A program made the position numbers and the translations under genes. From Candidatus Paraprochloron terpiosi LD05 (GTDB lineage: Bacteria > Cyanobacteriota > Cyanobacteriia > Cyanobacteriales > Prochloraceae), in NCBI GenBank assembly GCA_018141785.1, contig CP073341.1:2837261-2901260 (forward strand): a stretch of 64,000 bases of DNA, written 5' to 3'. Below, piece by piece: positions 12,722 through 52,901 of this stretch. The notes beneath the pieces were generated by a model. The model saw only the letters and a program-made list of their open reading frames with translations, was not told the origin of the DNA and searched no databases. Every line of letters starts with the position of its first letter. Positions within the stretch are counted from its first letter, which is position 1.

Positions 12722-12747
12722 CCCCCGCCATTAATCAATGCCGGGGG
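12722..12747. repeat. Mini-palindrome P1 (26 nt)
   Basis: Exact CCCCCGCCATTAATCAATGCCGGGGG inside intron B1. Confidence 0.85.
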
Positions 12748-12895
12748 GATTGCAGACTCCTAATCTGACCACATTCAATTGTGAATTCAAGCAATCTTGC
12801 CGGGTTTGTCACCGGGGGGTGAAGCTGGTAACAGGGCGGAATCAGGCACGAAAGTGACCCTGCCGCTAATAGGGAGAGTCTATGGTGAACAGAAG

Positions 12896-12921
12896 CCCCC
12901 GCCATTAATCAATGCCGGGGG
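12896..12921. repeat. Mini-palindrome P1 (26 nt)
   Basis: Exact CCCCCGCCATTAATCAATGCCGGGGG inside intron B1. Confidence 0.85.
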
Positions 12922-14078
12922 TGGTAAGTGAACTGTCGTAAAAAGCTTCTAATCCGGGGGAGCACAGCGTTAAGTTTAGGGGTGACGCCCCTTTAATGGG
13001 TATCCCAACTGGTAATTGAAACCCCACCTACTCAGCCCTGAAGAGAGGTATCCCTGGGGGACCAGTGGGCGAATTGATGGCACCTAAAGACTCGGAACAA
13101 TCTTAGATTTGGCAACGTTGCAAAAACGTAGGTAACCACATAGGGTGGTAACTAAGAGAGAGTTAGACAAACTCAAACGGGAACTACGAATAGGACGCAG
13201 GAACGAAACGAAAGCTAGTAATAGTGGAAACGATTGCCTGCAATGAGCGAGACCCGAAGAAGTACTCGAAATTGTATAAGTCGCTTGATGAACCTGAAAA
13301 GGTTAGATACCACGCCAGAGATGGTGATGATGAAGCAGGCGGTCAACCGAGTAGAGGAAAATAAGGGAAAGGCGACGAAAGTTATCTAAGCCAGAAACGG
13401 AACCAAATCTGATAACGGACGTTGTCAATGGTGAAGATGGATTCGCATCCAAAAGACAGCCATAGCTCATAGGAGCCGTGTACGGTGAAAGCTGTAAGCA
13501 CGGTTCTGAAGGGGAGCTGGGGTTTAGCAATGAACTCCTTCGACCCTGTCAGAATAAACTTTCCTTCGGGAATGATAGTTTCGGCAGCTAGGATAAATAA
13601 ACGTCGTTGCGTATTGCCACAGTGGTAGCTTGAGTAGCCCCATGATGGGCTCCAAATTTAAAAAAGCGCTTAACTTTCGAGTTAAGCTTTGCAGGCAACT
13701 GCCTTTACTATTTCTAGTGATGCTATACTTATCTCAGATTTATGCAGCAATGTATAAGTTTGAGCAGGTTAAATGTTGCACAAACTCCCACGGATGAATC
13801 ACGTGGGCTTTGCTTTTAGTTCGGTAATATTGTTTTTTTATGGAGCCGAGCAGAGTTGAACTGCTGTCCAGACTGGGTATTGACTGTCCGCTCATTCACA
13901 GGTTTAGCCCATCTAACCCTCAGGGCGGGAACCATCCCTTATCCCGGATGACAGGATACTCTGGCAAAGTCTTAGCTCTTGAGCCTACCAGAGGAGGAGC
14001 AAGAGAGCATCCGTTGAGGTTTGGCCCGCAGCCCTTAACGGAGTCAGACTGCGAGCGCTCGAACCTGTTTAGAGGTTT

Positions 14079-14126
14079 TTAGGCAACAGCAGCTGCCTTA
14101 CGAGCAAAAGGAACGATGTTGTTCGC
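14079..14126 (-). other. tmRNA tag reading frame ANNIVPFARKAAAVA plus stop
   Basis: Resume codon GCG at 14126..14124 and TAA at 14081..14079. This is a typical cyanobacterial ANNIV.FAR-type tag. Confidence 0.85.
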
Positions 14127-14127
14127 A

Positions 14128-14971
14128 GTTAGTCGAGATAGGTAGACCCTTACAGGTTTTCCCCCTCACAGTACCGGGCGTGCAACTTTCAAAGCACCCG
14201 GCTCCTGGTGTATCATCCTACTCCCGGCGCGTTAATTCCCATTTCTAGGACTGGTTTTTCAGGACTATTCCTACCGTCAGGCAGTCAAGTGGTTTTATTA
14301 ATCCTTAAATTTGACCAATCATCCCCGCCATTAGCGATTAGCCATAACGCTTTCAAACTTATGGGGAACATTGGGATTCAAGTCCCAGTTTCAGATTACA
14401 AATCCTATACGAATAGATTTGTAATTACGTTTCACCCTCTCTTACGTCAGCTCCCCTTTCGGGTAGACATTTGTCTATGAGTCAGGTTATACAGTCGTGT
14501 TTTCCCTCGGACTTTCGTCCATGACTCCATTCGCTTCTTAAGAGAGTCCTTTCTCCCCAGGGAATTGGTTCACCTTACGGCTTTCCTACGATTTCTCGAC
14601 CCTGTGGAGGTTTACTCGTTTCACAATAGTTAGATACGCCCGGGTTAGATTGCTCCTTACAACGGCGATGTGGTAGCTACCGCAGTCTAAAAATGAGTAG
14701 ACTTTTCACATATATCGCGTGCCATTTTGGCTAGAGTTTATCAGGTTGCTTAAACTCTTTCTCAAGTGACGTTGCTGCAAGCTTCGCTTTATGCTCACCA
14801 TACCGGACTTCCCATAGACTGTACCTGCTTACAACCTAGCAGGCCTTTAGCCACTTAACCCTCTAGCTGTGAAACACCCCCATTACTGGGACTGCCCCTT
14901 CGGGCTGGGACTGGAGAAACTACTCCCCGTGGGACTTTCGTTCACTAACTACTGCGACTTCCGAGTCGCAC
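14128..14971 (-). mobile_element. ORF-less group II intron, family C copy C1, inside ssrA
   Basis: The 5' end is GUGCGACUCGGAAGUCGCAGUAG (from 14971). Domain V is GAGCCGGGUGCUUUGAAAGUUGCACGCCCGGUAC at 14171..14204. Domain VI ends ...CCUAUCUCGACUAAC at 14128. A hairpin loop CAUUUU (14690..14695) is complementary to the last 6 nt of exon 1 (AAAAUG). No sense ORF of 60 aa or more is in the track. Confidence 0.85.
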
Positions 14972-15204
14972 CATTTTGTTTGAGCCTTTGATTTGCGAGA
15001 GGAGACTCACTCTCGACCTGAATCACAGGATAGCTTTCGCCAACCTGTCGAAACCGTTACGGCCCCTAGATTTCTTTCTCTATCCAATATCTTATAACAC
15101 TTGAGGGGTATTTAACAAGTTATTTTTATTAAGAATTGTAAATATTGTAAATATAGCTACAATTATCTACCAGAGTCAAAAATAGACCAAAAAGAAGCCG
15201 ACAG

Positions 15205-15681
15205 ATGGATTGTAGCCAGATTCAATTTTGCGTTGACAAATCAAAAATAGACCTGGAGCAATGCCTCGAATTATTCAACCTTAGTGCTTTTTGGGCGCAA
15301 GGGAGAAAAAAAGAGGATTTAGAAATAGCGATACGCTACTCGGATCCTGTAGTGAGCGTGTGGAACCAAGAGCTGATGGTAGGTTTTGCCAGAGCTACCT
15401 CCGACGGTATCTACCGCGCTACTATTTGGGATGTAGTCATCCATCCAGAATATCGGGGAGCCAGGTTAGGGCGCAAATTAGTAGAAACGGTTTTGAGCCA
15501 TCCAAAGGTGAACCGAGTAGAGCGAGTGTACTTGATGACTACCAATCAACAAAGCTTTTACGAACGAATTGGTTTTCTACCAAACCAAACTACTACTATG
15601 ATCCTCTACAACTCCTCCCCGAGCAGGGAGGTACTCATACCGCAGACTTGGCAAGAAGAAAGGAACACTCTAGCCGTGTAA
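15205..15681 (+). CDS. GNAT family N-acetyltransferase
   Basis: 158 aa. [36 protein letters not shown]...FYERIGF acetyl-CoA binding motif. Confidence 0.8.
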   Translation: MDCSQIQFCVDKSKIDLEQCLELFNLSAFWAQGRKKEDLEIAIRYSDPVVSVWNQELMVGFARATSDGIYRATIWDVVIHPEYRGARLGRKLVETVLSHPKVNRVERVYLMTTNQQSFYERIGFLPNQTTTMILYNSSPSREVLIPQTWQEERNTLAV

Positions 15682-15689
15682 GAGGCTGG

Positions 15690-16320: not shown

Positions 16321-16378
16321 TTCCCTGACGCCGGATATACCAATCCTTACCCGTCCATACTAAATTTGAGCCTTCAGG

Positions 16379-22269: not shown

Positions 22270-22271
22270 TA

Positions 22272-24765
22272 ATTAGAGTCGAGGGAGATGTTGCCACCTC
22301 GCCCCTCTCCTACGAACTGTACGTGAGACTTTCACCTCATACAGCTCAGGTGCTCCTATGTCTTCACGACGCGCTTTACGAGTCCGTCCTTAATGCGCTT
22401 GCGATGTATTGCTTGCGCCTGGTGACATTCTCGGTGGAGGGCAACTAGATTCTTGGGTTTCCAGTTGTTATGATTGCCGTCTTTGTGGTGCAACTCCACA
22501 GCTCCATCCCTCTCCATGAACTTACGGTTGCAATGCGGACACGTACCCTTCTGTCGCTTAATGGCGTTAGCGGTTGGGCCACTATATAGTTTAGAGTTGC
22601 GACCGACCCAATAGGAAATATTCCCATTGAAGGGTGAGGCATCACCTTTGACCATTACGTGGTCATTGACTTTCCAGGGAACTGAGGGAAAGGCTTTCTC
22701 TATCTGGGCTATTGTAAGTTGGCGTTTTGCTGCTCCTACTAGGGGTTTCCCTTTGATAGCCAGACGTCTTGCTTTCTCCGCTTCCTTAATTGCCATCCTG
22801 CGTTTTTCAGCCCTCAGCTTACGCCATACCCAGTGACTGAGTGACCATAGCGAGTGCTTGTTCATGTCGCAGTTTTTGTGGTACTGCCTCCAACCTCGGA
22901 CTTGTGACTCTATCCTTTTCAGGCGAGCATCCGTGGTTGCGCCATTCTTCCAAGTGGTCTTTATCTTGGCCTTGATGTCCGCATAATTCTCAGAGCTCGG
23001 TGTAGATTTGAAGACTCCACGGGAATTGACACGGAAGCGCCACCCCAGGAAATCGAACCCATCCGTAGCTTTACTCACCTTAGTCTTAGTTTCGTTAATT
23101 CGTAGCCCTCTGGACTTTAGGAATTCATCGATATTCTCCCGTAGCCTCTTGGTATCAGCTCCGGGTTTACAGATAAAGACCGCATCATCTGCGTAACGTA
23201 TACCCCTTATGAGAGTGCCACCTTGGCGTCTCCTTTTCCATTGATTCAACCCCAGGTTCTCAAATCCATCTAGAGCGATATTGGCCAGTAGAGGTGAGAT
23301 AACCCCACCTTGGGGGGTACCCTTCATACTGGAGGGATATTCACCACGAACGCCTGCTTTTACAGCTTTCTTTAACCCCTTTAGAGCTTCGATTGGTAAG
23401 ATTACTCCATTGAGCATGACCTTGTGGTCAATTTCGTCAAAGCATTTACTGATATCTGTTTCCAGAATCAGCTTGTCTTTACCATTTGCTTGGCTGTTTA
23501 GGTTCACGAAAATCAGCTTTTGTGCGTCCGCAGTACAGCGACCGGGTCTGAAGCCGTAGCTCCGTTCTCCGGCGGTTGCTTCGTAGGCAGGCTCGGCTGC
23601 TAACTTAAGCAGTGCTTGCCATGCCCTGTCGGCCATTGTAGGGATGCCTAATCCCCTTGTTTTGCCGTTTGGCTTCGGGATATTTACCCTTCTTAGTTGC
23701 TGGTGTTTCCAGTGGTACCAGTGCTTATTCAGCCTTTGGCATAACACTAGACGCTCATTGGTAGAAAGCGCTGTTTTTCCATCAACTCCGGGGGACTTAC
23801 GCCCTGTGTTCAGCTGTGTTACTTGTTTGACGGCCAGAGCTTGAGCTGCACGACTCTGTAATAGGAGCCGTTGTAAACGTTTGACTTTGGCTTTGTGCTT
23901 GTCCTTTTGCGCTTTGAAGATACTCCGCTGTAACCGAAATACCTGACCTCGAAATCTCTTCCATGGCAGGTCTTTCCAGACATCGTCAGCCTTCCGGCCA
24001 ATCTTCCCCGCCATTAGCAGAACTGCTAGGTGGAGCCTCAAGGCTTTTAGACTGCGGTATTCGATTGGAGTCTGGTTAGTGATATTCACAGTTTTGACCT
24101 TCATTAGTCGCTCTGATAATTACATTGGGTATCTTCTCTGTAGAAACCATCAGGCAGTTACGCCTTCTCTTACCCTCGCTCTTCCGGTAGGCCGTTAATC
24201 GGGCGACCCCACCATCTCACATATCAGGGCTTGGAATCCCTTGTTTTAATGGAGGTTGAGCGAGTTTTTACTCGTTCCGAATGACCTATTGTTACGAACC
24301 CTTGGGACTCATCCTTTGACCTATCACCAACTCAGGAATGTAAATATGCTCCACGGATTTTACGAGTTTCTTTCGGTGTCTTTTCTGCTCTATAGCGGCT
24401 TGGCAGTGTCTCTCGTTAGGTCTTTTCACTGATGATTCACGTTGTTATCCCGGTGTTCTCCCTATTAGCGGCGTAACCATCGAACCGCTCGATAGTCCGG
24501 TCCCGCCCTGCTGCCAGCTTCAGCCTGATGATTAATCTCACTGTGGCCAGATAAGGATTCACATGATTCCTTCATGGGAGAGGCTTGGTAACACGATTTC
24601 TGGCCGTGCCCTCACTCTCATAGTTCATTCAGTTGTCAGGGTTCGGTATCGTTTGTCCGTTTTCGTCCCTTTCGGTGGTTTAGATTATCGGAGACGTTGT
24701 CCCGGGAACCCTGCTCCTGCTTATGTTTGGCTCACGCCGCGACCTTCACAGGAAACGAGCCGCAC
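22272..24765 (-). mobile_element. Full-length group II intron, family A (A1), with an intact IEP
   Basis: The 5' end is GTGCGGCTCGTTTCCTGTGAAGGTCGCGGCGTGAGCC (from 24765). Domain V is GAGCTGTATGAGGTGAAAGTCTCACGTACAGTTCG (about 22313..22347). The 3' end is ...CCCTCGACTCTAAT at 22272. No mini-palindrome insertions. Confidence 0.9.
22356..24104 (-). CDS. Group II intron reverse transcriptase/maturase with a C-terminal HNH endonuclease domain
   Basis: 582 aa. RT motifs (GTPQGGVISPLLANI, IRYADDAVF), a maturase region, and HNH (CPHCNRKF...ELHHKDGNHNNW...LHRECH). Confidence 0.95.
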   Translation of the reverse strand: MKVKTVNITNQTPIEYRSLKALRLHLAVLLMAGKIGRKADDVWKDLPWKRFRGQVFRLQRSIFKAQKDKHKAKVKRLQRLLLQSRAAQALAVKQVTQLNTGRKSPGVDGKTALSTNERLVLCQRLNKHWYHWKHQQLRRVNIPKPNGKTRGLGIPTMADRAWQALLKLAAEPAYEATAGERSYGFRPGRCTADAQKLIFVNLNSQANGKDKLILETDISKCFDEIDHKVMLNGVILPIEALKGLKKAVKAGVRGEYPSSMKGTPQGGVISPLLANIALDGFENLGLNQWKRRRQGGTLIRGIRYADDAVFICKPGADTKRLRENIDEFLKSRGLRINETKTKVSKATDGFDFLGWRFRVNSRGVFKSTPSSENYADIKAKIKTTWKNGATTDARLKRIESQVRGWRQYHKNCDMNKHSLWSLSHWVWRKLRAEKRRMAIKEAEKARRLAIKGKPLVGAAKRQLTIAQIEKAFPSVPWKVNDHVMVKGDASPFNGNISYWVGRNSKLYSGPTANAIKRQKGTCPHCNRKFMERDGAVELHHKDGNHNNWKPKNLVALHRECHQAQAIHRKRIKDGLVKRVVKT

Positions 24766-39145: not shown

Positions 39146-39263
39146 CTTTTAAATCATCCCAGAATATTAAAAGTAGGGTGCAGAGAGAATTCATTAGTCC
39201 ACGCTAGGTGGACTTCCCGATTAGAGTCGAGGGAGCTGCCACGCAGCTCGCCCCTCTCCTACG

Positions 39264-39291
39264 ACACCGAAGGTGCCGCCTTTGGCGTCCC
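39264..39291. repeat. Mini-palindrome P2
   Basis: ACACCGAAGGTGCCGCCTTTGGCGTCCC inside domain V of A2. Confidence 0.75.
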
Positions 39292-39307
39292 GGACGTGCA
39301 AGTTTCC

Positions 39308-39333
39308 CCCCCGCCATTAATCAATGCCGGGGG
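39308..39333. repeat. Mini-palindrome P1 (26 nt)
   Basis: Exact copy, replacing part of domain V of A2. Confidence 0.85.
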
Positions 39334-39344
39334 CTCAGGTGCTT

Positions 39345-41156
39345 CTATGCCTTTACGGCGCGCTGACATTGACCGTCCTTAATACGCTTGCGATGTATCG
39401 CTTGCGCCTGGTGACACTCTCGGTGGAGGGCAACTAGATTCTTACGTTTCCAGTTGTTATGGTTGCCATCTATGTGGTGCAATTCCACGGCTCCATCCAT
39501 CTCCATGAACAATCGATTGCAATGCTGACATTTGCCCTTCTGTCGCTTAATTGCTTCAGCGGTTGGCCCACTGTACAGTTTGGAATTCCGGCCAACCCAA
39601 TAGGAAACATTCCCATCGTAGGGTGAGGCATCACCTTTGACCCCCGCCATTAATCAATGCCGGGGGCCGTTGACTTTCCAGGGAATTGCTGGGAAAGCAA
39701 TATGTACCTGCTCACTGGTGAGCTGTCGTTTGGCCGCCCCTTGGGGTTTAATCCCCTTAGTGGCGAGCCGTCGTGCTTTCTCTGCTTCCATAGTCGCCAT
39801 CCTGCGTTTTTCTGCCCTTAGTTTGCGCCATAGCCATGTCCGCAGCGGGTCATAGGGCGTGTTTACCCATATCGCAGCTTGAGTGATATTGCCTCCAGCC
39901 TCGGACTTGTGACTCAATCCTTTTCAGACGAGCTTCCGTGGTTGCACCACTTTTCCAGGTTGCTTTAACCTTAGCCTTTATGTCTGCATAATTCTCGGAA
40001 CTCGGTGTGGATTTAAATACCCCACGAGAGTTGACGCGGAAGCGCCATCCCAGGAAATCGAATCCATCCGTTGCCTTACTCACCTTAGTCTTAGCTTCAT
40101 TAATTCTTAGCCCTCTGGACTTTAAGAATTTGTCTATATCCTCCCAGAGTCGCTGGATATCGGCTCCAGGCTTTAGGATAAAGACCGCGTCATCCGCATA
40201 ACGAATACCCCTTATTAGCGGTTCGTCTGACCGCTGCTTTTTCCGTTGGTCTAACCCTAGGTTCTCAAATCCATCTAGGGCGATATTGGCCAGTAGTGGT
40301 GATATGACCCCGCCTTGGGGGGTGCCCTTGATACTGGAGGGATATTCACCACGGACGCCAGCTTTTACTGCAAGTCCGAGACCCTTTCGAGCCTCTTTTG
40401 GCAAAGTCACTCTTCTGAGCATTAACTCATGGTCAATTTCGTCAAAGCATTTGCTAATATCTGTTTCCAGTATTGACTTTTCCTTGCCATTAGCATTGCT
40501 ACTGAGATTAAGAAAACTCAGCTGTTGTGCGGACGCACAACAGCGACCGGGTCGGAAGCCGTAGCTCCTTTCTCCGGCAGTGGCCTCATAGGCAGGCTCG
40601 GCTGCTAACTTGAGCAGTGCTTGCCATGCCCGGTCAGCCATTGTAGGGATGCCTAAACCCCGTGTTTTGCCGTTGGGCTTGGGGATGTTCACCCTTCTCA
40701 GTTGCTGGTGTCTCCAGTGGTGCCAATGCTTATTCAACTTTTGACACAGCACTAAACGCTCCCGTTTGATTCGTGCGGTTTTTCCATCAACTCCGGGGGT
40801 CTTACGCCCAAGATTTCGCTGTGTTACTTGTTTGACGGCCCTAGCTCTGGGCTGCACGGCTTTGTAATAGAAGCCGTTGTAAGCGTTTGACTTTGGATTT
40901 TTGATTGTTATGCATGCGCTTTGAAGATACACCGTTGTAACCGAAAGACCTGTTGCCGGAATCGCTTCCATGGCAAGTCCTTCCAGACATCGTCAGCCCT
41001 CCGGCCAATCTTCCCCGCCATTAGCAAAACTGCTAGGTGGAGCCTCAAGGCTTTCAGACTGCGGTATTCGATTGAAGTCGGGTTAGTGATGTTCACAGTT
41101 TTGACCTCATTAGTCGCTCTACTAGTTACATTGGGTCTCTTCTCTGTAGAAACCAT
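39345..41156 (-). pseudogene. Family A IEP pseudogene of A2 (at least 4 ORF pieces)
   Basis: Track ORFs 40908..41156, 39850..40971, 39654..39917 and 39345..39650. It has RT motifs, YADDAVF and HNH. It is broken by frameshifts and by P1. Confidence 0.85.
39641..39666. repeat. Mini-palindrome P1 (26 nt)
   Basis: Exact copy, at the same IEP codon position as 35402..35427. Confidence 0.85.
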
Positions 41157-41489
41157 CGGGCAGTTACGCCCTTCTTACCCTCGCCCTTCCGATAGGCCGT
41201 TAATCACGCGACCCCACCACATCACATGTTGGGCTTGGAATCCCCTGCTTCAGTGGAAGTTGAGCGAGTTTTTACTCGTTGGGAATGAACTATTGTTACG
41301 AACCCTTGGGACTCATCCCTTGGGTCATCACCAACTCAGGAATGTAAGTACTCTATTAATGGTCTTACGAGTTTCTTTCGGTGTCTTTTCTGCTCTCTAG
41401 CGGCTCGGCAGTGTCTTGCGTTAGGTCTTTTCGTAGATGATTCACGTTAGGTTATCCCGGTGTTCTCCCTGTTAGCAGTGTTACCGACG

Positions 41490-41517
41490 ACACCGAAGGT
41501 GCCGCCCAAGGCGTCCC
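41490..41517. repeat. Mini-palindrome P2
   Basis: ACACCGAAGGTGCCGCCCAAGGCGTCCC at the apex of the hairpin CGACGAG/CTCGTC. It is absent in copy A4. Confidence 0.75.
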
Positions 41518-41582
41518 GCTCGTCAGCTCCAGTCCCGCCCTGCTGCCAGCTTCCGTCTGGTGATTAACCTCACGGTGGCCAG

Positions 41583-41611
41583 CCCGGAGGGCGCGGCTGC
41601 GCAGGAGCAGG
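41583..41611. repeat. Mini-palindrome P3 variant (reverse orientation)
   Basis: CCCGGAGGGCGCGGCTGCGCAGGAGCAGG. It occupies the position where A1 reads GCCAG-ATAA-GGATTCAC. Confidence 0.6.
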
Positions 41612-41909
41612 GGATTCACGTGATTCCTTCACGGGAGAGGCTCGGTTACACGATTACTGACCGTTGTACTCACTCTCATAGTTCATTCAGTTGTCAAGGT
41701 TCGGTAATCACTACCTTAGAGGTTCGGCAACCCTGTTTTGAGGTCACTTAATTTCTCTCGCTTTTCCCTTATGGGTCTCGCGTTCAGGTAGGAGTCGTTT
41801 GTCCGTTTTCAGCCCCCCCTTTTGGTGGCTATCGGAAACGATGTCCCAGAAACCAGGCTCCTGCTTATGTTTGGCTTACGCCGCGACCTTCACAGGAAAC
41901 GAGCCGCAC

Positions 41910-42114
41910 TATTAGACCGCAATTCGCGGGCGAGCAAGCAGCCGAGCTTTACTATTCCTGTAGGGACAACTTATGAAGTAGTAACCCCTCATAGTTTAGA
42001 AGGATGGTACGAAGAATCCACTAGTAAAGCTTTCGGGGATAAGTGGATTAGGGAGGTAAGGTCATGTATTCTCATTGTATCGTCTCTAGTAGCCAAAGAG
42101 GACAATAATATTTT
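41910..42114 (+). pseudogene. RES-domain toxin gene remnant, middle segment
   Basis: ...FTIPVGTTYEVVTPHSLEGWYEESTSKAFGDKWIREVRSCILIVSSLVAKEDNNIL. The frame continues at 47426. No N-terminal half was found. Confidence 0.5.
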
Positions 42115-42199
42115 ATTAGAGTCGAGGGAGGTGTTACCACCTCGCCCCTCTCCTACGAACCGGACGTGAGACTTTCACCTCATCCGGCTCAGATGTCGT

Positions 42200-42637
42200 C
42201 TATGCCTTTACGGCGCGCTTTGCGAGTCCGTCGTTAATACGTTTGCGGTGTACCGCTTGCGCCTGGTGACATTCTCGATGGAGAGCGACTAGATTCTTGC
42301 GTTTCCAGTTGTTATGGTTGCCGTCAATGTGGTGCAACTCCACAGCACCGTCTATCTCCATGAACTTACGGTTGCAATGCTGACACTTACCCTTCTGTCG
42401 TTTGAGGGCTTCAGCGGTTGGTCCACTGTATAGTTTGGAATTACGGTTGACCCAATAGGTGATGTTTCCGTTGTAGGGTGAGGCATTTCCTTTGACCATC
42501 ACGTGGTCGTTGACTTTCCAGGAAACTTTTGGGAAGGCTTTCTCTATCTGCTTTGATGTAAGCTGGCGTTTAGCCGCTCCTAAGGGTTTACCCTTGATTG
42601 CCAGACGTCTTGCTTTCTTTGCTTCCTTTTGAGCCAT
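42200..42637 (-). pseudogene. C-terminal (HNH) part of the outer intron's IEP
   Basis: 145-aa ORF ...WKVNDHVMVKGNASPYNG...CQHCNRKF...ELHHIDGNHNNW. Confidence 0.8.
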
Positions 42638-42750
42638 CCTGCGTTTTTCCGCCCTCAGCTTATGCCATACCCAGTGATTAGAGTCGAGGGGGATGTTACC
42701 ACCCCGCCCCTCTCCTACGAACTGTACGTGAGACTTTCACCTCATACAGC

Positions 42751-44553
42751 TCAGGTGCTTCTACACCAATGGGAGGCGCGCTTTACGAGTCCGTCTTTAA
42801 TGCGCTTGCGGTGTATCGCTTGCGTTTGATGACATTCCCGATGGAGGGCGACTAGATTCTTACGTTTCCAGTTGTTATGGTTACCGTCAATGTGGTGCAA
42901 CTCCACGGCACCATCCATCTCCATGAACTTACGGTTGCAATGCTGACACTTACCCTTCTGTCGCTTGATAGCTTCAGCGGTTGGCCCACTATATAGTTTG
43001 GAATTTCGACCGGGCCAATAGGAGATGTTCCCATTGTAGGGTGAGGCATCACCTGTAACCATCACGTGGTTATTGACTTTCCAGGGAACTGTTGGGAAAG
43101 CTTTCTTAATCTGCTCTGATGTGAGCGCGCCTCGCGCGCTCCTAAGGGTTTACCCTTGATAGCCAGACGTCTTGCTTTCTCTGCTTCCTTGATTGCCATC
43201 CTGCGTTTTTCAGCCCTCAGCTTACGCCATACCCAGTGACTGAGCGACCATAGCGAGTGCTTGCTCATATCGCAGTTTTTGTGATACTGCCTCCAACCTC
43301 GGACTTGTGACTCTATCCTTTTCAGGCGAGCCTCCGTGGTTGCGCCATTTTTCCAAGTGGCTTTTACTTTGGCCTTGATGTCTGCATAATTCTCGGAGCT
43401 CGGTGTAGATTTGAAGACTCCACGGGAGTTGACACGAAAGCGCCACCCTAAGAAGTCGAACCCATCCGTAGCTTTACTCACCTTAGTCTTAGTTTCATTG
43501 ATTCTTAGCCCTCTGGACTCCAGGAATTCGTCGATATCTTCCCGTAGCTTCTTGGTATCAGCTTTGGGTTTACAGATAAAGACCGCGTCATCTGCATAAC
43601 GTATACCCCTTATGAGAGTCCCATTTTTGCGACTCCCTTTCCATTGGTCAGACCCTAGGTTCTCAAATCCATCTAGGGCGATGTTGGCCAGTAGGGGTGA
43701 TATGACACCACCCTGGGGCGTACCCTTAATACTGGAGGGATATTCACCGCGAACGCCTGCTTTTACAGCCAGTTTGAGACCTTTGAGAGCCTCTTTAGGT
43801 AGGACTACTCCTTTGAGCATGACTTTATGGTCAATTTCGTCGAAGCATAAGAGGGATGTCTGTTTCCAAGACCAGCTTGTTCTTACCATTTGCTTGGCTG
43901 CTTAGATTCTGGAAAATCAGCTTTTGTGCGTCCGCAGTACAGCGACCGGGTCGGAAGCCGTAGCTCCTTTCTCCGGCGGTTGCTTCATAGGTTGGCTCGG
44001 CTGCTGATTTGAGCAGCGCTTGCCAAGCCCGGTCAGCTATTGTCGGGATGCCTAGACCCCTTACTTTGCCGTTAGGCTTGGGGATATTAACCCTTCTCAG
44101 TTGCTGGTGTTTCCAGTGGTACCAATGCTTGTTTAGTCTTTGGCACAGTGTCAGACGCTCCTTGGTGGAGAGTGCTGTTTTACCATCAACTCCGGGGGAC
44201 TTACGCCCTGTATTCAGCTGTGCTACTTGTTTGACGGCCAGTGCTTGGGCTGCACGACTCTGTAATAGGAGCCGTTGTAAACGTTTAACCTTGGCTTTTT
44301 GACCATTCTTTTGCGCTTTGAAGATACACCGCTGTAACCGAAATACCTGATTGTGGAATCGCTTCCACGGTAGGTCTTTCCAGACATCGTCAGCTCTCCG
44401 GCCAATCTTCCCCGCTAGTAGGAATGCTGCTAAGTGGAGCCTCAAGGCTTTTAAACTGCGGTATTCGATTGAAGTCTGGTTAGTGATATTCACAGTTTTG
44501 ACCTCATTAATCGCTCTGATAATTACACTGGGTATCTTCTCTGTAGAAACCAT
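42751..44553 (-). pseudogene. IEP pseudogene of the inner intron (3 ORF pieces)
   Basis: Track ORFs 43831..44553, 43062..43889 and 42751..43065. It has the same ETDIPLMLR/TSLLCFDEI +1 frameshift as the copy at 34570. Confidence 0.85.
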
Positions 44554-44619
44554 CGGGCAGTTACGCCCTCTCTTACCCTCGCTTTTCCGATAGGCCGTTA
44601 ATCAAGCGACCCCACCACT

Positions 44620-44649
44620 CCTGCTCCTGCGCAGCCGCGCCTGAGCAGG
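44620..44649. repeat. Mini-palindrome P3 (30 nt)
   Basis: CCTGCTCCTGCGCAGCCGCGCCTGAGCAGG. Confidence 0.8.
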
Positions 44650-45003
44650 CATTGTTGGGATTGGACTCCCCTGTTTCCGTGGAGGTTGAGCGAGTTTTTA
44701 CTCGTTCCGAATGAACTATTGCTACGAACCCTTGGGACTCATCCCTTGACCTATCACCAACTCAGGAATGTAAGTGTCTCAGCACTGAAACTTACGAGTT
44801 TCTATCGGTGTCTTTTCTGTCTTTAGCGACTTGACAGTGTCTGGTATTAGGTCTTTTTCAGATGATTCACATTAAGTTATCCCGGTGTTCTCCCTGTTAG
44901 CGGTGTTACCGACGAGCCGCTCGTCAGCTCCAGACCCGCCCTGCTGCCAGCTTCCGCCTGGTGATTAACCTCACGGTGGCCAGATAAGGATTCACGTGAT
45001 TCC

Positions 45004-45033
45004 CCTGCTCCTGCGCAGCCGCGCCTGAGCAGG
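45004..45033. repeat. Mini-palindrome P3 (30 nt)
   Basis: Same 30-mer. A1 lacks it at this site (gattcc-ttcat-gggagagg). Confidence 0.8.
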
Positions 45034-45312
45034 CGGGAGAGGCTTGGTTGCACGATTTCTGACCGTGCCCTCACTCTCATAGTTCATTCAGTTGTCAAGG
45101 TTCGGTAATCATTACCTTAGAGGTTCGGTAATCCTATTTGAATCACCTGATTCCTCTCGCGTTTTCCCTTATGGGTCTCGCGTTCAGGTAGGAGTCGTTT
45201 GTCCGTTTTCAGCCCCTTTCGGTGGCTTAGATTATCGGAGACGATGTCCCGGAAACCCTGCTCCTGCTTATGTTTGGCTTATGCCGCGACCTTTACAGGA
45301 AACGAGCCGCAC

Positions 45313-46640
45313 ACTGAGTGACCATAGCGAGTGCTTGCTCATGTCGCAATTTTTGTGATACTGCCTCCAACCACGGATTTGTGACCCTATCCTTTTCAGG
45401 CGAGCATCCGTGGTTGCGCCGTTCTTCCAGGTGGTTTTAACCTTAGCCTTGATGTCCGCATAATTCTCGGAACTCGGTGCGGATTTAAAGACCCCATGGG
45501 AATTGACCCTAAAGTTCCATCCCAGGAAGTTGAATCCGTCCGTAGCCTTACTCACCTTAGTCTTAGTTTCGTTAATTCTTAGTCCTCTGGTCTTTAGGAA
45601 TTTGTCGATATCCTCCCGTAGCCTCTTGGTATCAGCTCCGGGTTTACAGATAAAGACCGCGTCGTCTGCGTAACGAACACCTCTTATGAGAATCCCATCT
45701 CTGCGACTCTTTTTCCATTGATTCGTTCCTAGATTCTCAAATCCATCTAGAGCGATGTTGGCCAGTAGGGGTGAAATCACTCCACCCTGGGGCGTACCCT
45801 TAATACTGGAGGGGTATTCACCACGAACGCCAGCTTTTACAGCCATCTTTAACCCCTTTAGGGCTTCGATTGGTAGGACTACTCCATCGAGCATAACCTT
45901 GTGGTCAATTTCGTCAAAGCATTTGCTAATATCTGTTTCCAGTATCAGCTTTTCCCTGCCATTTGTTTTGCTTCTGAGGTTATTGAAGATTAGCTGTTGT
46001 GCGTCCGCAGTACAGCGACCGGGTCGAAAGCCGTAGCTTCTTTCTCCGGCAGTAGCCTCATAGGCAGGCTCTGCTGCTAATTTGAGCAACGCTTGCCACG
46101 CCCGGTCGGCTATTGTAGGGATGCCCAATCCACGAGTTTTGCCGTTTGGCTTCGGGATATTTATCCTTCTTAGTTGCTGGTGTTTCCAGTGGTGCCAGTG
46201 CTTGTTCAGCCTTTGACACAACACTAGACGCTCTTTAGTAGAGAGTGCGGTTTTGCCATCAACTCCGGGGGACTTACGTCCTGTGTTTAGCTGTGTTACT
46301 TGTTTGACGGCTCCCGGCATCCTCGATGGCGGGAGGCTGCACGACTCTGTAGTAGGAGCCGTTGTAAACGTTTGACTTTGGCTTTTTGACCGTTCCTTTG
46401 CGCTTTAAAGATTGCCCGTTGTAATCGAAAAACATGATACCGGAATCGCTTCCATGGCAGGTCTTTCCAGACATCACTAGCCTTCCGGCCAATCTTCTCC
46501 ACCGACAGAAATACTGCCAAGTGAAGTCTCAGGGCTTTCAGACTAGGGTATTCGGTTGTAGTCTGGTTAGTGAAATTCACAAGTTTGACCTCATTAGTCG
46601 CTCTGATAATTACATTGGGTATCTTCTCTGTAGAGACCAT
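45313..46640 (-). pseudogene. N-terminal/RT part of the outer intron's IEP (frameshifted by a P1-variant insert)
   Basis: Track ORFs 46296..46640 and 45268..46320. CTCCCGGCATCCTCGATGGCGGGAG (46311..46335) interrupts LLLQSRAA|VKQVTQLN. Confidence 0.8.
46311..46335. repeat. Mini-palindrome P1 variant (P1b)
   Basis: CTCCCGGCATCCTCGATGGCGGGAG. Confidence 0.6.
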
Positions 46641-46713
46641 CGGGCAGTTACGCCCTCTCTTACCCTCGCTCTTCCGTTAGGCCGTTAATCAGGCGACCCC
46701 ACCACTTCACATG

Positions 46714-46758
46714 CCTGCTCCTGCGCAGCCGCGCCCCCGGCATCCGCGATGGCGGGGG
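46714..46758. repeat. P3 half-copy interrupted or replaced by a P1b variant (nested mini-palindromes)
   Basis: CCTGCTCCTGCGCAGCCGCGC followed by CCCCCGGCATCCGCGATGGCGGGGG. The 3' half of P3 (CTGAGCAGG) is missing. Confidence 0.6.
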
Positions 46759-47117
46759 TTGGGCTTGGAATCCCTAGTTTCCGTGGAAGTTGAGCGAGTT
46801 TTTACTCGTTCCGAATGAACTATTGTTGCGAACCCTTGGGACTCATCCATTGACCTATCACCAACTCAGGAATGTAAGTGTCTTAATGCTGAACCTTACG
46901 AGTTTCTTTCGGTGTTTCTTCTGTCGTCTGTAACGGCCTTTCGACAGTGTCACTTCTTAGGTCTTTTCGTAGATGATTCACGATTAAGTTATCCCGGTGT
47001 TCTCCCTGTTAGCGGAAGTATCTCTGCCTAACCGTTTGGCCGCACTTTACTGCCCTGTTGCCAGCTTCAGCCTGATGATTAATCTCACTGTGGCCAGATA
47101 AGGATTCACGTGATTCC

Positions 47118-47147
47118 CCTGCTCCTGCGCAGCCGCGCCTGAGCAGG
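47118..47147. repeat. Mini-palindrome P3 (30 nt)
   Basis: CCTGCTCCTGCGCAGCCGCGCCTGAGCAGG. Confidence 0.8.
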
Positions 47148-47425
47148 CGGGAGAGACTTGGTAACACGATTTCTGACCGTGTCCTCACTCTCATAATTCA
47201 TTCAGTTATCATGGTTCGGTTATCACTACCCTAGAGGTTCGGTAATCCTATTTGAATCACCTAATTTTCTCTTGTGTTTCTCTGGCGGGTCTCACATTCA
47301 GGTAGGAATCATTTGTCCGTTTTCAGCCTATTTCTGGGCTTAAATTATCGGAAACGATGCCCCTGAAACCAAGTCCTAGCTTATGTTTGGCCTAGGCCGC
47401 GACTTTTGCTAGGAACGAGCCGCAC

Positions 47426-47513
47426 GATTAATGAAGCTCACCCCCAGTTCCCCAATATTGAAAAAAGTCTCAACCGTCCATTGGTTTGGGATAAACGACT
47501 CTTCTCTAACTGA
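47426..47513 (+). pseudogene. RES-domain toxin gene remnant, C-terminal segment
   Basis: Joined in frame to 42114 it gives ...KEDNNILINEAHPQFPNIEKSLNRPLVWDKRLFSN*. This N.L.N..HP.F....FD.RL-like ending is typical of RES proteins. Confidence 0.5.
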
Positions 47514-47687
47514 GTTATTATGATTAAACAAACTCGATTAGGCACTCTTGACAGAGAGAGAGAAAGATAAAATAACAGCTCCAAACTATCAACTAGCTGC
47601 CAGAAATGTATCTGGATTCATCTGCGTTTATCTGTGTTCATCTGCGGTTCAATACATCCACTTTAAATCATACCACAACCATGAGCA

Positions 47688-48088
47688 GTTGAAGTAGAGT
47701 GCTCTGTTACCAAAGCGACCCTCTTCTTAGAACCGTGCGTGCGATTCTCACCGCACACGGCTCCCCAATTTCATCGCTGTTAAGCGCTCTTTCTAAGAGA
47801 TGCCCTCTTTGATTCGGTCCTTGTGAACCTCCTGGTATTGATGGCATTCCCTGTGCATAGCTTTGAGATTACGGCGTTTCCAGTTATTGTGGTCTCCATC
47901 CGCGTGGTGCAATTCCACTATATCGCTAAGCAGAAACGGTTCATTGCAATGAGCACATCGAAGTTTCTGTCTTTTCATAGCCTTTCCGGTCGGACTATCC
48001 GCGTATAGTTCAGACTTCCGGTTAACCCAGTAAGTCGTGTTCCCGTCATACGGGCTTGCGGTTCCCTTAACCATTACGTGGCTGTTTA
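47688..48088 (-). mobile_element. Family E group II intron 3' fragment (E2) with the HNH end of its IEP
   Basis: Domain V is GAGCCGTGTGCGGTGAGAATCGCACGCACGGTTCT. Domain VI is ...AGAGCACTCTACTTCAAC, ending at 47688. ORF 47793..48074 has the HNH motif (CAHCNEPF...ELHHADGDHNNW). Confidence 0.6.
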
Positions 48089-48170
48089 TCGAGATAGGTA
48101 GACTCTTACGGGTTTTCCCCCTCGCAGTAACGGACGTGCAACTTTCAAAGCATCCTGCTCCTGGTGTTTC
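48089..48170 (-). mobile_element. Family C 3' fragment (C3: domain V plus a truncated domain VI)
   Basis: Minus strand GAGCAGGATGCTTTGAAAGTTGCACGTCCGTTAC...GTCTACCTATCTCGA, abutting ...TAAACAGCCACGTAATGGTT of the E2 IEP gene. Confidence 0.45.
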
Positions 48171-49379
48171 AGCTTACTCACTCTAGTAACTATCGCTTTT
48201 GTCTTATCCTTACAGGTTTTCAGACGGACTCTACTAGTGATTTTTGTCCTCTTTAATCCCTGCCCGCCTCTGTTTGCTTAATTAGAGTCGAGGGAGCTGC
48301 CACGCAGCTCGCCCCTCTCCTACGAACTGTACGTGAGACTTTCACCTCATACAGCTCAGGTGCTTCTATGCCAATGGGAGGCGCGCTTTCGTAGACCGTC
48401 CTTAATACGCTTGCGGTGTATCGCTTGCGCCTGGTGACACTCTCGATGGAGGGCAACTAGATTCTTACGTTTCCAGTTGTTATGGTTGCCATCGATGTGG
48501 TGCAACTCCACGGCTCCGTCCATCTCCATGAACAATCGGTTGCAGTGCTGACATTTGCCCTTCTGTAGCTTAATGGCATCAGCGGTTGGCCCACTATATA
48601 GTTTGGAATTCCAACCAACCCCCGCCATTGACTTTCCAGGGAATTGCTGGGAAAGCTTTCCTTTTTTGCTCTGATGTGAGCTGACGCTTCGCTGACCCCT
48701 GTGGCTTTTTGCCAAAAGTTGCCATCTGTCGTGCTTTCTCTGCTTCCTTTTGAGCCATCCTACGTTTTTCAGCTCTCAACTTCCGCCATACCCATTGTTT
48801 GAGCGACCATAGCGAGTGCTTACCCATATCGCAGTTTGAGTGATATTGCCTCCAGCCTCGGACTTGTGACTCTATCCTTTTCAGACGAGCTTCCGTGGTA
48901 GCACCACAATTCCTGAGTTGCTTTAACCTTGGCCTTTATGTCTGCATGATTCTCGTTACTCGGTGTGGATTTGAATACTTCTCTTGAATTAACGCGAAAG
49001 CGCCATCCCAGAAAATCGAATCCATCCGTAGCTTTACTCACCTTCGTCTTAGCTTCATTTATCCTTAGCCCTCTGGACTTTAAGAATTTGTCTATATCTT
49101 CTCTTAACCGCGTGGTGTCGGCTTCGGGTTTACAGATAAAGACCGCGTCGTCTGCGTAACGTATACCCCTTATTAGGCTCCTTGAGCGTTGCCTTTTCCA
49201 TTGGTCAGACTTTGACCCATCACCAACTCAGGAATGTAAATATTCTGGTCTACCTTACGAGTTTCTTTCGGTGTCTCTTCTGCTCTTTAGCGGCTTGGCA
49301 GTGTCTGCGTTTAGGTCTTTTCTCAGATGATTCACGTTAAGTTATCCCGGTGTTCTCCCTGTTAGCGGTGTTACCGACG

Positions 49380-49407
49380 ACACCGAAGGTGCCGCCCTTG
49401 GCGTCCC
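49380..49407. repeat. Mini-palindrome P2
   Basis: ACACCGAAGGTGCCGCCCTTGGCGTCCC, at the same hairpin apex as in A2. Confidence 0.75.
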
Positions 49408-49492
49408 GCTCGTCAGCTCCAGTCCCGCCCTGCTGCCAGCTTCCGCCTGGTGATTAACCTCGCGGTGGCCAGATAAGGATTCACGTGATTCC

Positions 49493-49522
49493 CCTGCTCC
49501 TGCGCAGCCGCGCCTGAGCAGG
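49493..49522. repeat. Mini-palindrome P3 (30 nt)
   Basis: CCTGCTCCTGCGCAGCCGCGCCTGAGCAGG. Confidence 0.8.
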
Positions 49523-49772
49523 CGGGAGAGGCTTGGTTGCACGATTACTGACGGTGGCCTCACTCTCATAGTTCATTCAGTTATCAAGGTTCGGTTTTCA
49601 CTACCTTAGAGTTTCGGTAATCTTTTACAATCGCCTATTTTCTCTTTAGATAGGATTGTCTGAGCCCTTCAGCCAGTTTCCCGGCTTAGATTTCACTCTG
49701 ACTTTTAGCCTAGAACCAAGCCCCTGCTTATGTTCTGCTTGCGCCGCGACTTTCACAGAGAACGAGCCGCAC

Positions 49773-50157
49773 TACCAAAACGCATCTAACTTACGGCGGG
49801 GTCTTATGTCGTGATACCTAGATTTAGTTGTCAAGGGACCCCCGCCATTAATCAATGCCGGGGGGGACGCCAAGGGCGGTTGCTTACGCAAAGCTTACGC
49901 AATCAGCTCCCTCTTGGGATATCCGCTTTTCAGTTTCTTTCGGTACTTAGATTGTGCGGGGGCTGCTTTCCCCAGCTGCAGGTTATATTTTGGCTTATGC
50001 CGCGATTTTCGCCTTCACGTCACTTTGTCTATCCTTTTGGTTTGATTTTTTCCCTGTTTTGGTTCTTAAACCTCTTGTCAGGACGCCATGTCGTTAAACC
50101 AAGCCCTAGTTTATATGCGAGCTAATGCCCACGTTTTCACGCTTGATCGAGCCGCAC
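49773..50157 (-). mobile_element. Mosaic of family D 5' end (D2) and family B 5' region, fused to the cca 3' end
   Basis: Minus strand GTGCGGCTCGATCAAGCGTGAAAACGTGGGC...GTGACGTGAAG|GCGAAAATCGCGGCATAAGCC...GCGTCCC[P1]TCCCTTGACAACTAAATC. The D/B junction falls in the shared GGCGAAAATC string. Confidence 0.55.
49839..49864. repeat. Mini-palindrome P1 (26 nt)
   Basis: Exact copy. B1 lacks it at this site (GCGTCCCAAGACAACTAAATC). Confidence 0.85.
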
Positions 50158-51359: not shown

Positions 51360-51382
51360 CCAAGAAAGGGAATAATAGGTAT

Positions 51383-51631
51383 ATGTGTATTTGTATAAAC
51401 TGCTACTTTGTAGACCGCTGTGAAACCTATCATGCAGTAGAAACTCAGCACCAACAACCCCACTTGACGGACAACCCGGACTTTGAACCGGACGAACCCA
51501 CTATCAATGTCAATATCCGTCCCCAACAAGACCATGTCGAAATGGAGTGGGACGTGGTGGGTTGTCACAGTTTCCTGAAAGAAGATGGGAAATGGGCAAA
51601 ACTGCGACCAGGAGAAGCAGTCCCTACCTAA
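51383..51631 (+). CDS. ycf34: Ycf34 family protein
   Basis: 82 aa. MCICINCYFVDRCETYHAVE cysteine motif. Confidence 0.8.
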   Translation: MCICINCYFVDRCETYHAVETQHQQPHLTDNPDFEPDEPTINVNIRPQQDHVEMEWDVVGCHSFLKEDGKWAKLRPGEAVPT

Positions 51632-51706
51632 ACACTTATCATGACAGTCTCACCTGGATTGTGTTAATATGTCAATTTTAGTAAACCTTTGTCAAGATTG
51701 GGCTGA

Positions 51707-52315
51707 ATGTCATTAGAGCTTTTCTCATTAGATAACATCCAGGAAATAGCACGTCAATACGGATATTGGGCTGTATTTTTGGGAATAGCTCTAGAAAATA
51801 CAGGAATACCTCTACCTGGGGAAACAATCACTGTGGTGGGGGGTTTTTTTGCAGGTAGCGGCGAGTTAAAATATTGGTTAGTGTTGGGTAGCGCCATTTC
51901 TGGTGCGGTTCTGGGGGATAATTTTGGTTACTGGATTGGTAGAATGGGGGGTTGGCCATTTTTACTCAAAGTAGGAAGCATTTTTCGGATTCAGGAGAAA
52001 CAATTAGAAGAAGGGAGAAATAAATTTAGAAAGAACGCTGAATCAGCAGTCTTTTTTGGTCGCTTTATCGCCCTCTTGCGGATTTTTGCCGGTCCCATAG
52101 CTGGAGTCGCCGAAATGCCCTATGGTCGATTTTTACTTTGCAATTTCAGCGGTGCTGCTTTGTGGGGATTCATAATGGTCAGTATATCATTTTTCCTGGG
52201 CAAATTGGTTCCTTTATACCAAATAGTCCATTGGATCAGCCAATTTGGTGTTGCTCTCCTCTTTTTAATCATCCTTGGGTTTATCCTGACCACCTGGTGG
52301 GAGTCTCAAGATTAG
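51707..52315 (+). CDS. DedA family membrane protein
   Basis: 202 aa. LENTGIPLPGETI...FGRFIALLRIFAGPIAG. Confidence 0.8.
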   Translation: MSLELFSLDNIQEIARQYGYWAVFLGIALENTGIPLPGETITVVGGFFAGSGELKYWLVLGSAISGAVLGDNFGYWIGRMGGWPFLLKVGSIFRIQEKQLEEGRNKFRKNAESAVFFGRFIALLRIFAGPIAGVAEMPYGRFLLCNFSGAALWGFIMVSISFFLGKLVPLYQIVHWISQFGVALLFLIILGFILTTWWESQD

Positions 52316-52332
52316 ACAGCAATTCTTAAATT

Positions 52333-52395
52333 GTAGGTTGGGTAGAAAGTCGTGAAACCTGCAAATGTTGGGTTTCGTCCCTCAATCCAACCTAC
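52333..52395. repeat. Palindromic intergenic repeat (GTAGGTTGGG...CCAACCTAC)
   Basis: Inverted termini with an internal TGTTGGGTTTCG motif. It resembles dispersed cyanobacterial MITE-like repeats. Only one copy is in the window. Confidence 0.3.
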
Positions 52396-52873
52396 TAATA
52401 CTGGGTAGAAAATCTTCACAATTACTAGTTAAATGAGCCAATCTATTTGACCAAGACAGCATATTTTAAAACTTCCCTGTGTACAAGAAAGTTCAATAAC
52501 TTCAAACAGTGATAGGACAAAAATAACTCTTACTGACTTTTGATGAATTAGATGATAAACAGGCTGAATTATTAGCAAGCTTTACCAACACTAAGCTTCC
52601 AGAAGTGCAAGAAGTTATCGCATTAGGAAAGGAAGTGAAGGAAAAACAACATGAATCAACCCGATTCGATTCCCTCTGGGATGAAACAGGAGAAATCTTC
52701 TCTCGTTGGAATTTACAGGAGATTCCTTTCTCCGAGAGTGCTTCCAGTTTGCAGTCTAATTTAGATAAAGTGTTTACTGGTCGAAGTTCCGAGTTAAAGC
52801 AAGTCTTCCAACTGCTGCTCTCACTCAAGAGCTTCTAATTCGAGAGAGAGGTTTATAGTAAGGCGGCTCAATG

Positions 52874-52901
52874 ACACCGAAGGTGCCGCCCTTGGCGTCC
52901 C
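52874..52901. repeat. Mini-palindrome P2 (the only copy outside intron DNA)
   Basis: ACACCGAAGGTGCCGCCCTTGGCGTCCC in intergenic DNA. Confidence 0.75.

Follow-up and report, generated by a model that had tools for sequence, protein, structure and literature searches.

In a 64,000-nt stretch of Candidatus Paraprochloron terpiosi LD05 (contig CP073341.1; hereafter the window, with position 1 as its first nucleotide), an earlier note had described four families of small palindromes, P1 to P4, inserting into copies of group II introns. We propose that three of these families, P1, P2 and P3, are likely to be lineage-specific mobile modules of 24-30 nt, GC-rich imperfect hairpins that act at the DNA level, depend on their hairpin form and are copied into new sites. 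Sequence comparison shows that the elements are copied to sites lacking homology, that each family has its own target rule, that bases of the target are replaced, that the elements depend on base pairing and that loops invert. The description of four inserting families stands for P1-P3 and is not supported for P4, which occupies a single homologous site.

Exact positions and variants were sought in the window using Hamming scans, with dinucleotide-preserving shuffles as the null. All previously listed exact copies were recovered, comprising eight of P1 (CCCCCGCCATTAATCAATGCCGGGGG, 26 nt), six of P2 (ACACCGAAGGTGCCGCCnnnGGCGTCCC, unit of 26-28 nt), four of P3 (30 nt) and two of P4 (29 nt), with zero expected from shuffles for each family (Table 1). 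No copies with one to three mismatches, a sample not chosen by exact match, were found in the window for any family. Among the derivatives reported earlier, the P1 half-copy and the reversed P3 are present, and a truncated P3 is indeed fused to a P1 variant at 46714..46758; that variant is the single clear one, where two had been counted. The predicted hairpins have folding energies of -8 to -21 kcal/mol. Filled and empty homologous sites were located via flanking anchors and not via the element itself. Presence and absence among paralogs proved real but not clean in the sense first described, since bases are replaced (~10 nt by P1, 1-2 nt by P2 and 2-4 nt by P3), and no target-site duplication was detected at any filled/empty site of P1-P3.

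P1 has the most distinctive target rule. Ten segments replaced by P1 could be read from empty homologs (CAGAAAACTG, CCGTACACGG, CCGGATG(A/C)GG, CGCTATCGCG, CACCAATATGGGTG, CCGCGACACGA, CCTGCAAGGG, CCATTACGTGG, CCTGTAAGGG and CGCGTTAGCG), and seven of them form strict mini-hairpins with a 3-bp stem, where random 10-mers do so in 1.8% of cases (p = 6e-11); a further two count as mini-hairpins if a 1-nt offset is allowed. The first base is C in all ten and the last is G in nine. These alignments show that P1 overwrites a pre-existing mini-hairpin of ~10 nt with a 3-bp stem, a ~4-nt loop and outer bases C...G. The window has ~265 potential targets of the form C-NN-N4-NN-G, and intron DNA is ~1.5 times richer in them; only seven hold P1, and a mini-hairpin is therefore needed but insufficient. 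One such target lies in the catalytic domain V of the introns, where the 10 nt following GAG in the 5' strand (CCGGATGAGG) are overwritten by P1 in at least six intron copies from three genomes and in both orientations. The report that P1 stands in place of half of domain V was confirmed in the window, the 5' strand being gone at 36431 and 39308, a replacement that removes half of the catalytic domain and destroys it.

P2 and P3 follow different rules. In 18 empty sites P2 replaces 1-2 nt at ..A|(A/C/G)C|C.. and lengthens the site by a net 24 nt. In its flank logo, 86% of contexts have A at position -1 and 89% have C at +1. The domain I hairpin described for P2 was recovered filled in intron copies A2 (41490) and A6 (49380) and empty at 44911-44925. 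P3 replaces 2-4 nt (TCAG, AGG, AGCC, TC or TTCR) preceded by A-C-C and followed by C, with A-C-C at -3 to -1 in 78%, 94% and 68% of contexts, and RNA folding places it as a separate hairpin within stretches predicted to be unpaired. Its site at 45004 is filled in A4, A5 and A6 and empty at 24565-24580, the earlier note having named A4 and A6 among the filled copies.

P2 is free of stop codons in all six frames and adds exactly eight codons. Among related loci (labelled L), which were fetched through exact element matches, ten copies from Prochloron sp. hold P2 in frame in an IS605-family tnpB gene between the RuvC residues ATEKL and KGM, inserting TPKVPPLAS (L054:661, L056, L070, L088, L091, L092, L040, L051, L052 and L062); these are split between TTT and AAA loops, and empty tnpB copies exist. 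In the same organism, a TamB-like open reading frame (ORF; 2010 aa) also holds P2 in frame (QDAKGGTFGV), as does a CheA-like ORF close to its start (L104:3823 and L065:121, respectively).

Variation within the elements indicates that pairing is maintained. Of 23 P1 relatives with 1-3 mismatches, 19 carry the compensatory change CCCGCGCC..GGCGCGGG, one has the same change with an extra difference at the end, one has CCGCCGCC..GGCGGCGG and two differ in the loop. None of the 23 has a single stem mismatch, and every variant retains the C.C mismatch of the P1 stem. A compensatory variant was also found for P3 (GTGC..GCAC). Such variants prove that the hairpin matters. P2 loops swap between TTT and AAA, and between CAA and CTT (CCAAGG/CCTTGG), among copies in identical contexts, which amounts to loop inversion in place. 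Elements are also nested, with P1-like units within P3 and P3b and P1 within a P1-like stem. P2 and P3 show no mismatches (0/1541 and 0/870, respectively) beside adjacent flanks that differ by 4.6-4.7%, a contrast that is inflated and partly circular owing to exact-match ascertainment and that we give little weight.

Genome-wide exact-match scans were made over one genome per species (185,579 species). P1 has 59 exact copies, found only in the Prochloron sp. metagenome-assembled genome OZ240666.1 and in Ca. Paraprochloron terpiosi. P2 has 73 copies in these Prochloron/Paraprochloron genomes, in addition to one in a Hormoscilla sp. and two chance actinobacterial matches, and the left part of P3 has 32 copies in the same two genomes, with chance matches in high-GC genomes. 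The scan detected no exact copies of P1-P4 in Nostocales. Judged by these matches, P1-P3 are specific to the Prochloron/Paraprochloron lineage, and the search of related genomes suggested in the earlier note thus does find exact copies there. Grouped by their flanks, the copies fall into 39 distinct contexts for P1, 37 for P2 and 19 for P3, and the window alone has seven, four and four non-homologous sites, respectively. The sole exact P2 copy in Hormoscilla (L090:6159, Hormoscilla sp. GUM202) sits at the same site as the copy at 39264, the base of domain V beside domain VI, in a homologous group II intron, which suggests that a P2-bearing intron moved between sponge/ascidian symbionts, or that it is old.

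P4 behaves differently. Four exact copies occur in Prochloron sp. and one copy with a single mismatch in Paraprochloron; together with the two in the window, all seven known copies, from three genomes, lie at one homologous position near an intron 5' end (GTGCGGCTCGTT..GTGAAAGTA[P4rc]GTAAGCC). Occupation of one homologous position across a lineage is what is expected of a native group II intron element, and it is seen for P4 and not for P1-P3. Since the genome scan gave only this site, P4 was rejected as a mobile family; on this alignment it is a hairpin at a single position of one intron lineage and should be dropped from the set. A diverged P4-like segment in domain V of two Paraprochloron introns (L024 and L107), following the same TGAAAGTA, is the only hint of a second site.

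The window is a graveyard of cyanobacterial introns, with eight Rfam matches to domain V/VI, 14 when a hidden Markov model built from those eight is used, and at least 13 GTGCG-type intron 5' ends. Intron-derived DNA makes up ~35% of the window and contains 19 of the 20 exact copies, so that the copy at 52874 is the only one outside, as first reported. By context, 16 of 17 lie in introns compared with 35% of bases, or with 68% of the DNA outside long ORFs (p = 0.014). In the related loci, 33 of 88 contexts (~37%) are intron-like compared with 9.8% of bases, and 30% would be expected from DNA outside long ORFs (p = 0.07). Once the counts were normalised in this way the excess in introns was weak, and intron-specific targeting was rejected as the main explanation. 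The remaining hosts include IS605 tnpB genes, an IS605 right-end hairpin, the TamB-like and CheA-like ORFs, other repeats and intergenic repeats, and P3 and P1 also occur inside or just past tnpB genes.

The proposal that the targets are specifically structured-RNA hairpins of introns is not supported, since only ~37% of related contexts are intron-like and since the domain V 5' strand and a maturase ORF are hit. A position mostly at hairpin apices applies to P1 and to one P2 site, and not to the other P2 sites or to P3. Flanks able to form at least five cross pairs were found in 33%, 30% and 21% of contexts compared with 26% under the null, and strict and folded tests gave no excess; insertion at the apex of a larger hairpin was dropped as a general rule, flank pairing being no more frequent than at random positions. 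Harmless extension of a stem is likewise limited: it applies to the apex of domain VI in C2, a mini-intron, and to the 41490/49380 hairpin of domain I, with the basal stem kept in folded C2 and 49380 RNA. The domain V strand, the maturase ORF targets and the lack of excess flank pairing together indicate that the target is a local DNA feature.

Table 1. Palindromic elements and intron features in the window, with homologous sites used for comparison.
Feature	Coordinates	Strand	Context	Homologous or adjoining sites
P1	12722..12747	+	ORF-less intron B (~12524-13560, +); in place of CCTGCAAGGG or CCTACAAAGG	CCTGCAAGGG or CCTACAAAGG retained by homologs in related genomes
P1	12896..12921	+	Intron B domain I	Filled in 4 copies, empty (CAGAAAACTG) in 1 Prochloron sp. 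copy
P1	24786..24811	+	Domain VI apex of mini-intron C2; in place of CCTGTAAGGG	CCTGTAAGGG retained in C1 (14147-14156); variant at 48103-48112
P1	35402..35427	-	Degenerate maturase ORF	Paralogous to 39641 copy
P1	39641..39666	+	Degenerate maturase ORF; CCATTACGTGG overwritten, net +15 nt	Empty sites at 22652-22662, 42496-42506, 43059-43069
P1 half-copy	48619..48628	+	Maturase site of 39641/35402; product of deletion between two CCATT repeats	
P1	36431..36456	-	In place of domain V 5' strand, right after GAG, in + strand intron remnant	
P1	39308..39333	+	A2; domain V 5' strand (CYGKATGAGG) overwritten	Intact at 22335-22344, 42178-42187, 47751-47760, 48345-48354
P1	49839..49864	+	In place of CGCTAACGCG	CGCTAACGCG still in paralog 25875-25884; abuts solo second hairpin of P2 at 49865-49878
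P1 variant	46734..46758	-	Same stem, loop CGCGG not TAATCA	Nested in and fused to truncated P3 at 46714-46735
P2	25032..25059	-	Loop GAA; mini-intron C2 domain I	C1 homolog empty; more empty sites (CC or AC) in related loci
P2	35955..35982	+	Loop GAA	Paralogous to 25032 copy
P2	39264..39291	+	Loop TTT; base of domain V 3' strand, adjoining domain VI; in place of GT in CGTCCG-GT-TCGTAG	8 filled intron copies from three other genomes (Hormoscilla among them)
P2	41490..41517	+	Loop CAA; apex of A2 domain I hairpin GACGAG/CTCGTC	Empty at 44911-44925, 24479-24493
P2	49380..49407	+	Loop CTT (inversion of CAA); A6	Same domain I site as 41490
P2	52874..52901	+	Loop CTT; outside introns; constant part of ~120-nt non-intron repeat	
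P3	44620..44649	+	A4; in place of TC	Empty at 41223-41234 and matching A1 site (alignment 24177-24260)
P3 left 22 nt	46714..46735	+	Fused to P1 variant; independent event	7 nt from 44620-equivalent position
P3	45004..45033	+	A4; in place of TTCA	Empty at 24565-24580, 41622-41637
P3	47118..47147	+	A5	45004-type site
P3	49493..49522	+	A6	45004-type site
P3 left part	41590..41611	-	A2; reversed; AGATAA replaced; independent event	~20 nt from 45004-type site
P4	18113..18141	+	Solo intron 5'-end fragment (GTGCGGCTCG... at 18166, -)	
P4	21088..21116	+	Second intron 5'-end fragment (5' end 21141, -)	Homologous position to 18113 copy
A1	22270..24765	-	Intact A-type group II intron; 582-aa reverse transcriptase/maturase ORF 22356-24104	Domain V/VI 22272-22349
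HNH-type intron	~55.8-58.3 kb		Intact ORF, 589 aa	
Intron cluster	39220..49960	-	Degenerate, partly nested A-type and other intron copies	13/20 P copies

Intron copies in the window diverge by 5-25%, in contrast to the lack of P copies with one to three mismatches, and several A-type maturase ORFs are truncated. No P elements were found in its two intact introns (A1 and the HNH-type intron), and A1 provides empty reference sites. Copy A6 (48278-49775) is a mosaic, its P2-bearing part being 94% identical to A2 (39333-41914) and its P3-bearing part 97% identical to A4 (42677-45312), so that its P2 site is occupied as in A2 and its P3 site as in A4 and A5. The four possible pairings of filled and empty states at these two sites are all represented, indicating recombination between intron copies. 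An intron 5' end (GTGCGGCTCGATCAAG...) is present at 50157 (-), ~50 nt before the stop of a CCA-adding enzyme ORF (50106-51359, -), and the 11-kb cluster downstream of it may represent a single outer intron that entered the 3' end of that gene and contains nested copies. The window also encodes the cyanobacterial small RNA Yfr1 at 33565-33628 (-; Rfam RF01116, 61.7 bits) and a free-standing small HNH endonuclease of 130 aa at 1459-1851 (+).

The P2 copy outside introns belongs to a repeat of ~120 nt with nine occurrences in three genomes (window 52790-52960, and L057, L079, L081, L082, L089, L100, L103 and L108). This repeat has the frame ..ggtcaatg[P2]caagaatccc-(variable hairpin)-gggagtgtcaa, in which the hairpin is kept despite sequence differences. 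A known RNA family at ~52.8 kb was rejected, as Rfam gave no match for the repeat.

Y1_Tnp genes are present in P-bearing loci of the related genome and are of ordinary IS200/IS605 type in the loci sampled. One IS605-type element of Prochloron sp. combines Y1_Tnp (E = 1e-40) with TnpB (L005:4217, L015:7486 and L053:1553), and in every copy seen the subterminal hairpin at its right end (CCTACACCG..CGGTGTAGG) has P1 at the apex and therefore tolerates P1. The window has a TnpB ORF of 353 aa (OrfB_IS605 and Cas12f1-like TNB; 16535-17596, -) with no adjoining Y1 transposase gene.

We hypothesise that the element, and in the case of P1 also its target, probably folds as a hairpin in single-stranded DNA for copying. 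This could proceed by one of two routes, either through an IS200/IS605-type Y1 (HUH) transposase acting in trans, for which the related genome encodes candidates, or through enzyme-free template switching or microhomology-guided conversion at hairpins. Their accumulation in group II introns would follow from the introns being dispensable, rich in hairpins and multi-copy in their own right; insertions tolerated there would then be amplified via intron duplication and shuffled via recombination between copies, and some, for example in domain V, may help to kill intron copies. A more specific version for P1 is a dedicated hairpin-for-hairpin exchange on single-stranded DNA, in which a Y1/HUH enzyme acting in trans would excise the C...G-closed mini-hairpin of ~10 nt and join P1 in its place. 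We regard this version as speculative and rather doubtful; if true, P1 would be among the smallest transposable units, with a target set by structure and not by sequence, and multi-copy introns would be natural traps logging each event.

Several points weigh against mobile modules. The perfect conservation of the elements could reflect function or gene conversion instead of recent transposition. The window encodes no Y1 transposase, the flank logos of P1 contain no conserved cleavage-type motif, and known Y1 systems do not, to our knowledge, replace target hairpins. Furthermore, the related loci are not a random sample of their genomes, having been fetched through the elements, and the intron mask behind the counts is approximate, having been extended by iterative BLAST.

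Other explanations account for part of the data. A single entry per family, followed by spread solely via intron duplication or retromobility, is true for P4 and agrees with the sites that paralogs share (39641/35402/48619; 41490/49380; 45004/47118/49493). For P1-P3 it is hardly credible, as their many non-homologous flanks, both in the window and across contexts that include non-intron DNA, refute spread through intron duplication alone and thereby settle the question, raised with the first description, of whether all copies are single ancestral insertions. An RNA-level origin, with hairpins entering exposed loops of intron RNA by template switching of reverse transcriptase or by ligation and becoming fixed on retrotransposition, would fit the intron enrichment relative to total DNA (16/17 and 33/88 contexts, for 35% and 10% of bases), the true RNA apices at domain VI and the domain I hairpin, and the abundance of reverse transcriptases. 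We consider it very unlikely. Elements also occur in non-intron DNA and in ORFs, copies of each of the three families point both ways with respect to the sense strand of the intron, and what P1 hits in domain V is a mini-palindrome confined to a single strand of the helix and not a loop of the folded RNA, all of which argue that the process acts on DNA; loop flips, moreover, are typical of DNA hairpins.

Enzyme-free templated mutation, in which template switching or microhomology-guided gene conversion would turn short palindromes into the most frequent long one, is a possibility we rate as low though appreciable. The outer bases of the replaced mini-hairpins (C...G, often CC...GG) match the ends of P1, target duplications are absent, the inversion of loops in place shows template switching at hairpins to be at work in these genomes, and the half-copy at 48619 arose from slippage between 5-nt repeats. 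However, the homology spans only 1-3 nt on each side, seven of ~265 potential targets in the window carry P1, the targets of P2 and P3 are sequence-specific and not hairpins, and P1 conserves its asymmetric C.C mismatch and its loop, which points to recognition by a protein. The elements might alternatively be functional motifs, that is, binding or processing sites or stabilising stem-loops under selection, with dispersal being secondary. Perfect conservation beside diverging flanks, compensatory stem changes, the constancy of P2 within the conserved ~120-nt repeat and its open frames inside ORFs would all be expected, but the elements are found in either orientation and in pseudogenised introns, break up tnpB motifs and destroy domain V, no Rfam family was matched, and the arrival of an identical 26-mer at new sites is left unexplained, making this account improbable. 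We therefore favour copying of P1-P3 as hairpin-dependent DNA modules.

How repeats of 20-30 nt move is unsolved for Nostoc small dispersed repeats (SDRs), many REP-like repeats and organellar GC clusters. The locus and its relatives offer dozens of filled/empty pairs with base-level junctions, three target rules and Y1 transposases in the same genomes; the junction data are unusually clean and the question of movement thus becomes testable, an intron-rich region of a symbiotic Prochloron-lineage cyanobacterium supplying natural before-and-after pairs for the mobility of tiny elements. Where they overwrite domain V, P elements can render a group II intron inactive, they can put in-frame peptides into tnpB and host genes, and the hairpins can mislead the annotation of introns, insertion sequences and ORFs in symbiont genomes.

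A search of the literature on Prochloron in combination with palindromes or group II introns found nothing on P1-P4 elements. Rickettsia palindromic elements, reportedly described by Ogata et al. in 2000, are said to be selfish DNA of 100-150 bp lying in frame within protein-coding and RNA genes; P2, in frame with eight codons and no stops, is similar, whereas the Rickettsia elements differ in size and phylum. Miniature inverted-repeat transposable elements are far larger than 24-30 nt, and P1-P3 replace bases and lack target duplications. Organellar hairpins, namely yeast mitochondrial GC clusters, the double-hairpin elements of Allomyces and the repetitive hairpin-forming elements of sponges (PMC2800124), are functional analogues. 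Like P1-P3 they are GC-rich, have conserved stems and invade introns, variable rRNA regions and sometimes ORFs, being kept in transcripts, but they belong to organelle genomes and to other sequence families. We know of no mini-hairpin replacement rule reported for them. In the group I intron of Nostoc tRNA-Leu(UAA), the P6b stem-loop is block-replaced by repeat-bearing sequence (PMC4476775), another functional analogue; this case differs in intron type, in its heptanucleotide repeats and in being confined to a single site.

REP/REPIN sequences (repetitive extragenic palindromes and their doublets) are high-copy, lineage-specific imperfect palindromes of 20-40 nt in which a conserved stem imperfection marks one strand, and they are associated with the Y1 HUH transposase RAYT; they move as inverted doublets beside the RAYT gene, lie outside genes and bear a tag, GTAG or CGTC (PMC3116915, PMC3733652). 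P1-P3 share the imperfect palindrome and the high copy number, and P1 has its conserved C.C mismatch, but P1-P3 occur as singlets inside introns, insertion elements and ORFs. In the flank logos neither GTAG nor CGTC appears as a tag at the base of the P1-P3 hairpins, and the CGTC within the GGCGTCC of P2 is partly paired. The SDRs of Nostoc punctiforme and relatives, SDR1-8, are reportedly 21-27 nt in length with some hairpin-forming families, according to work attributed to Elhai et al. in 2008. SDR5 inserts precisely between nucleotides 3 and 4 of the HIP1 palindrome (PMC4390886). At two Ca. Paraprochloron loci (L034:4202 and L046:3278), P1 and a small CCCGAAGGG hairpin are flanked by GCGAT on one side and CGC on the other, which looks like a split HIP1 site and recalls the insertion of SDR5. 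The likeness to SDRs proposed in the earlier note is borne out, as P1-P3 are tiny dispersed hairpins of similar size that are present or absent in otherwise conserved homologs and repeats, are nested and occupy many unrelated contexts. They differ in lying outside the Nostocaceae and in their targets, which are ORFs, IS605 elements and group II introns. PMC5861425, citing the published survey, gives no SDR-like repeats outside the Nostocaceae, and P1-P3 indicate, against that statement, that such elements exist there. By these shared features of size, dispersal and presence or absence, the Nostoc SDRs appear to be the closest known system to P1-P3.

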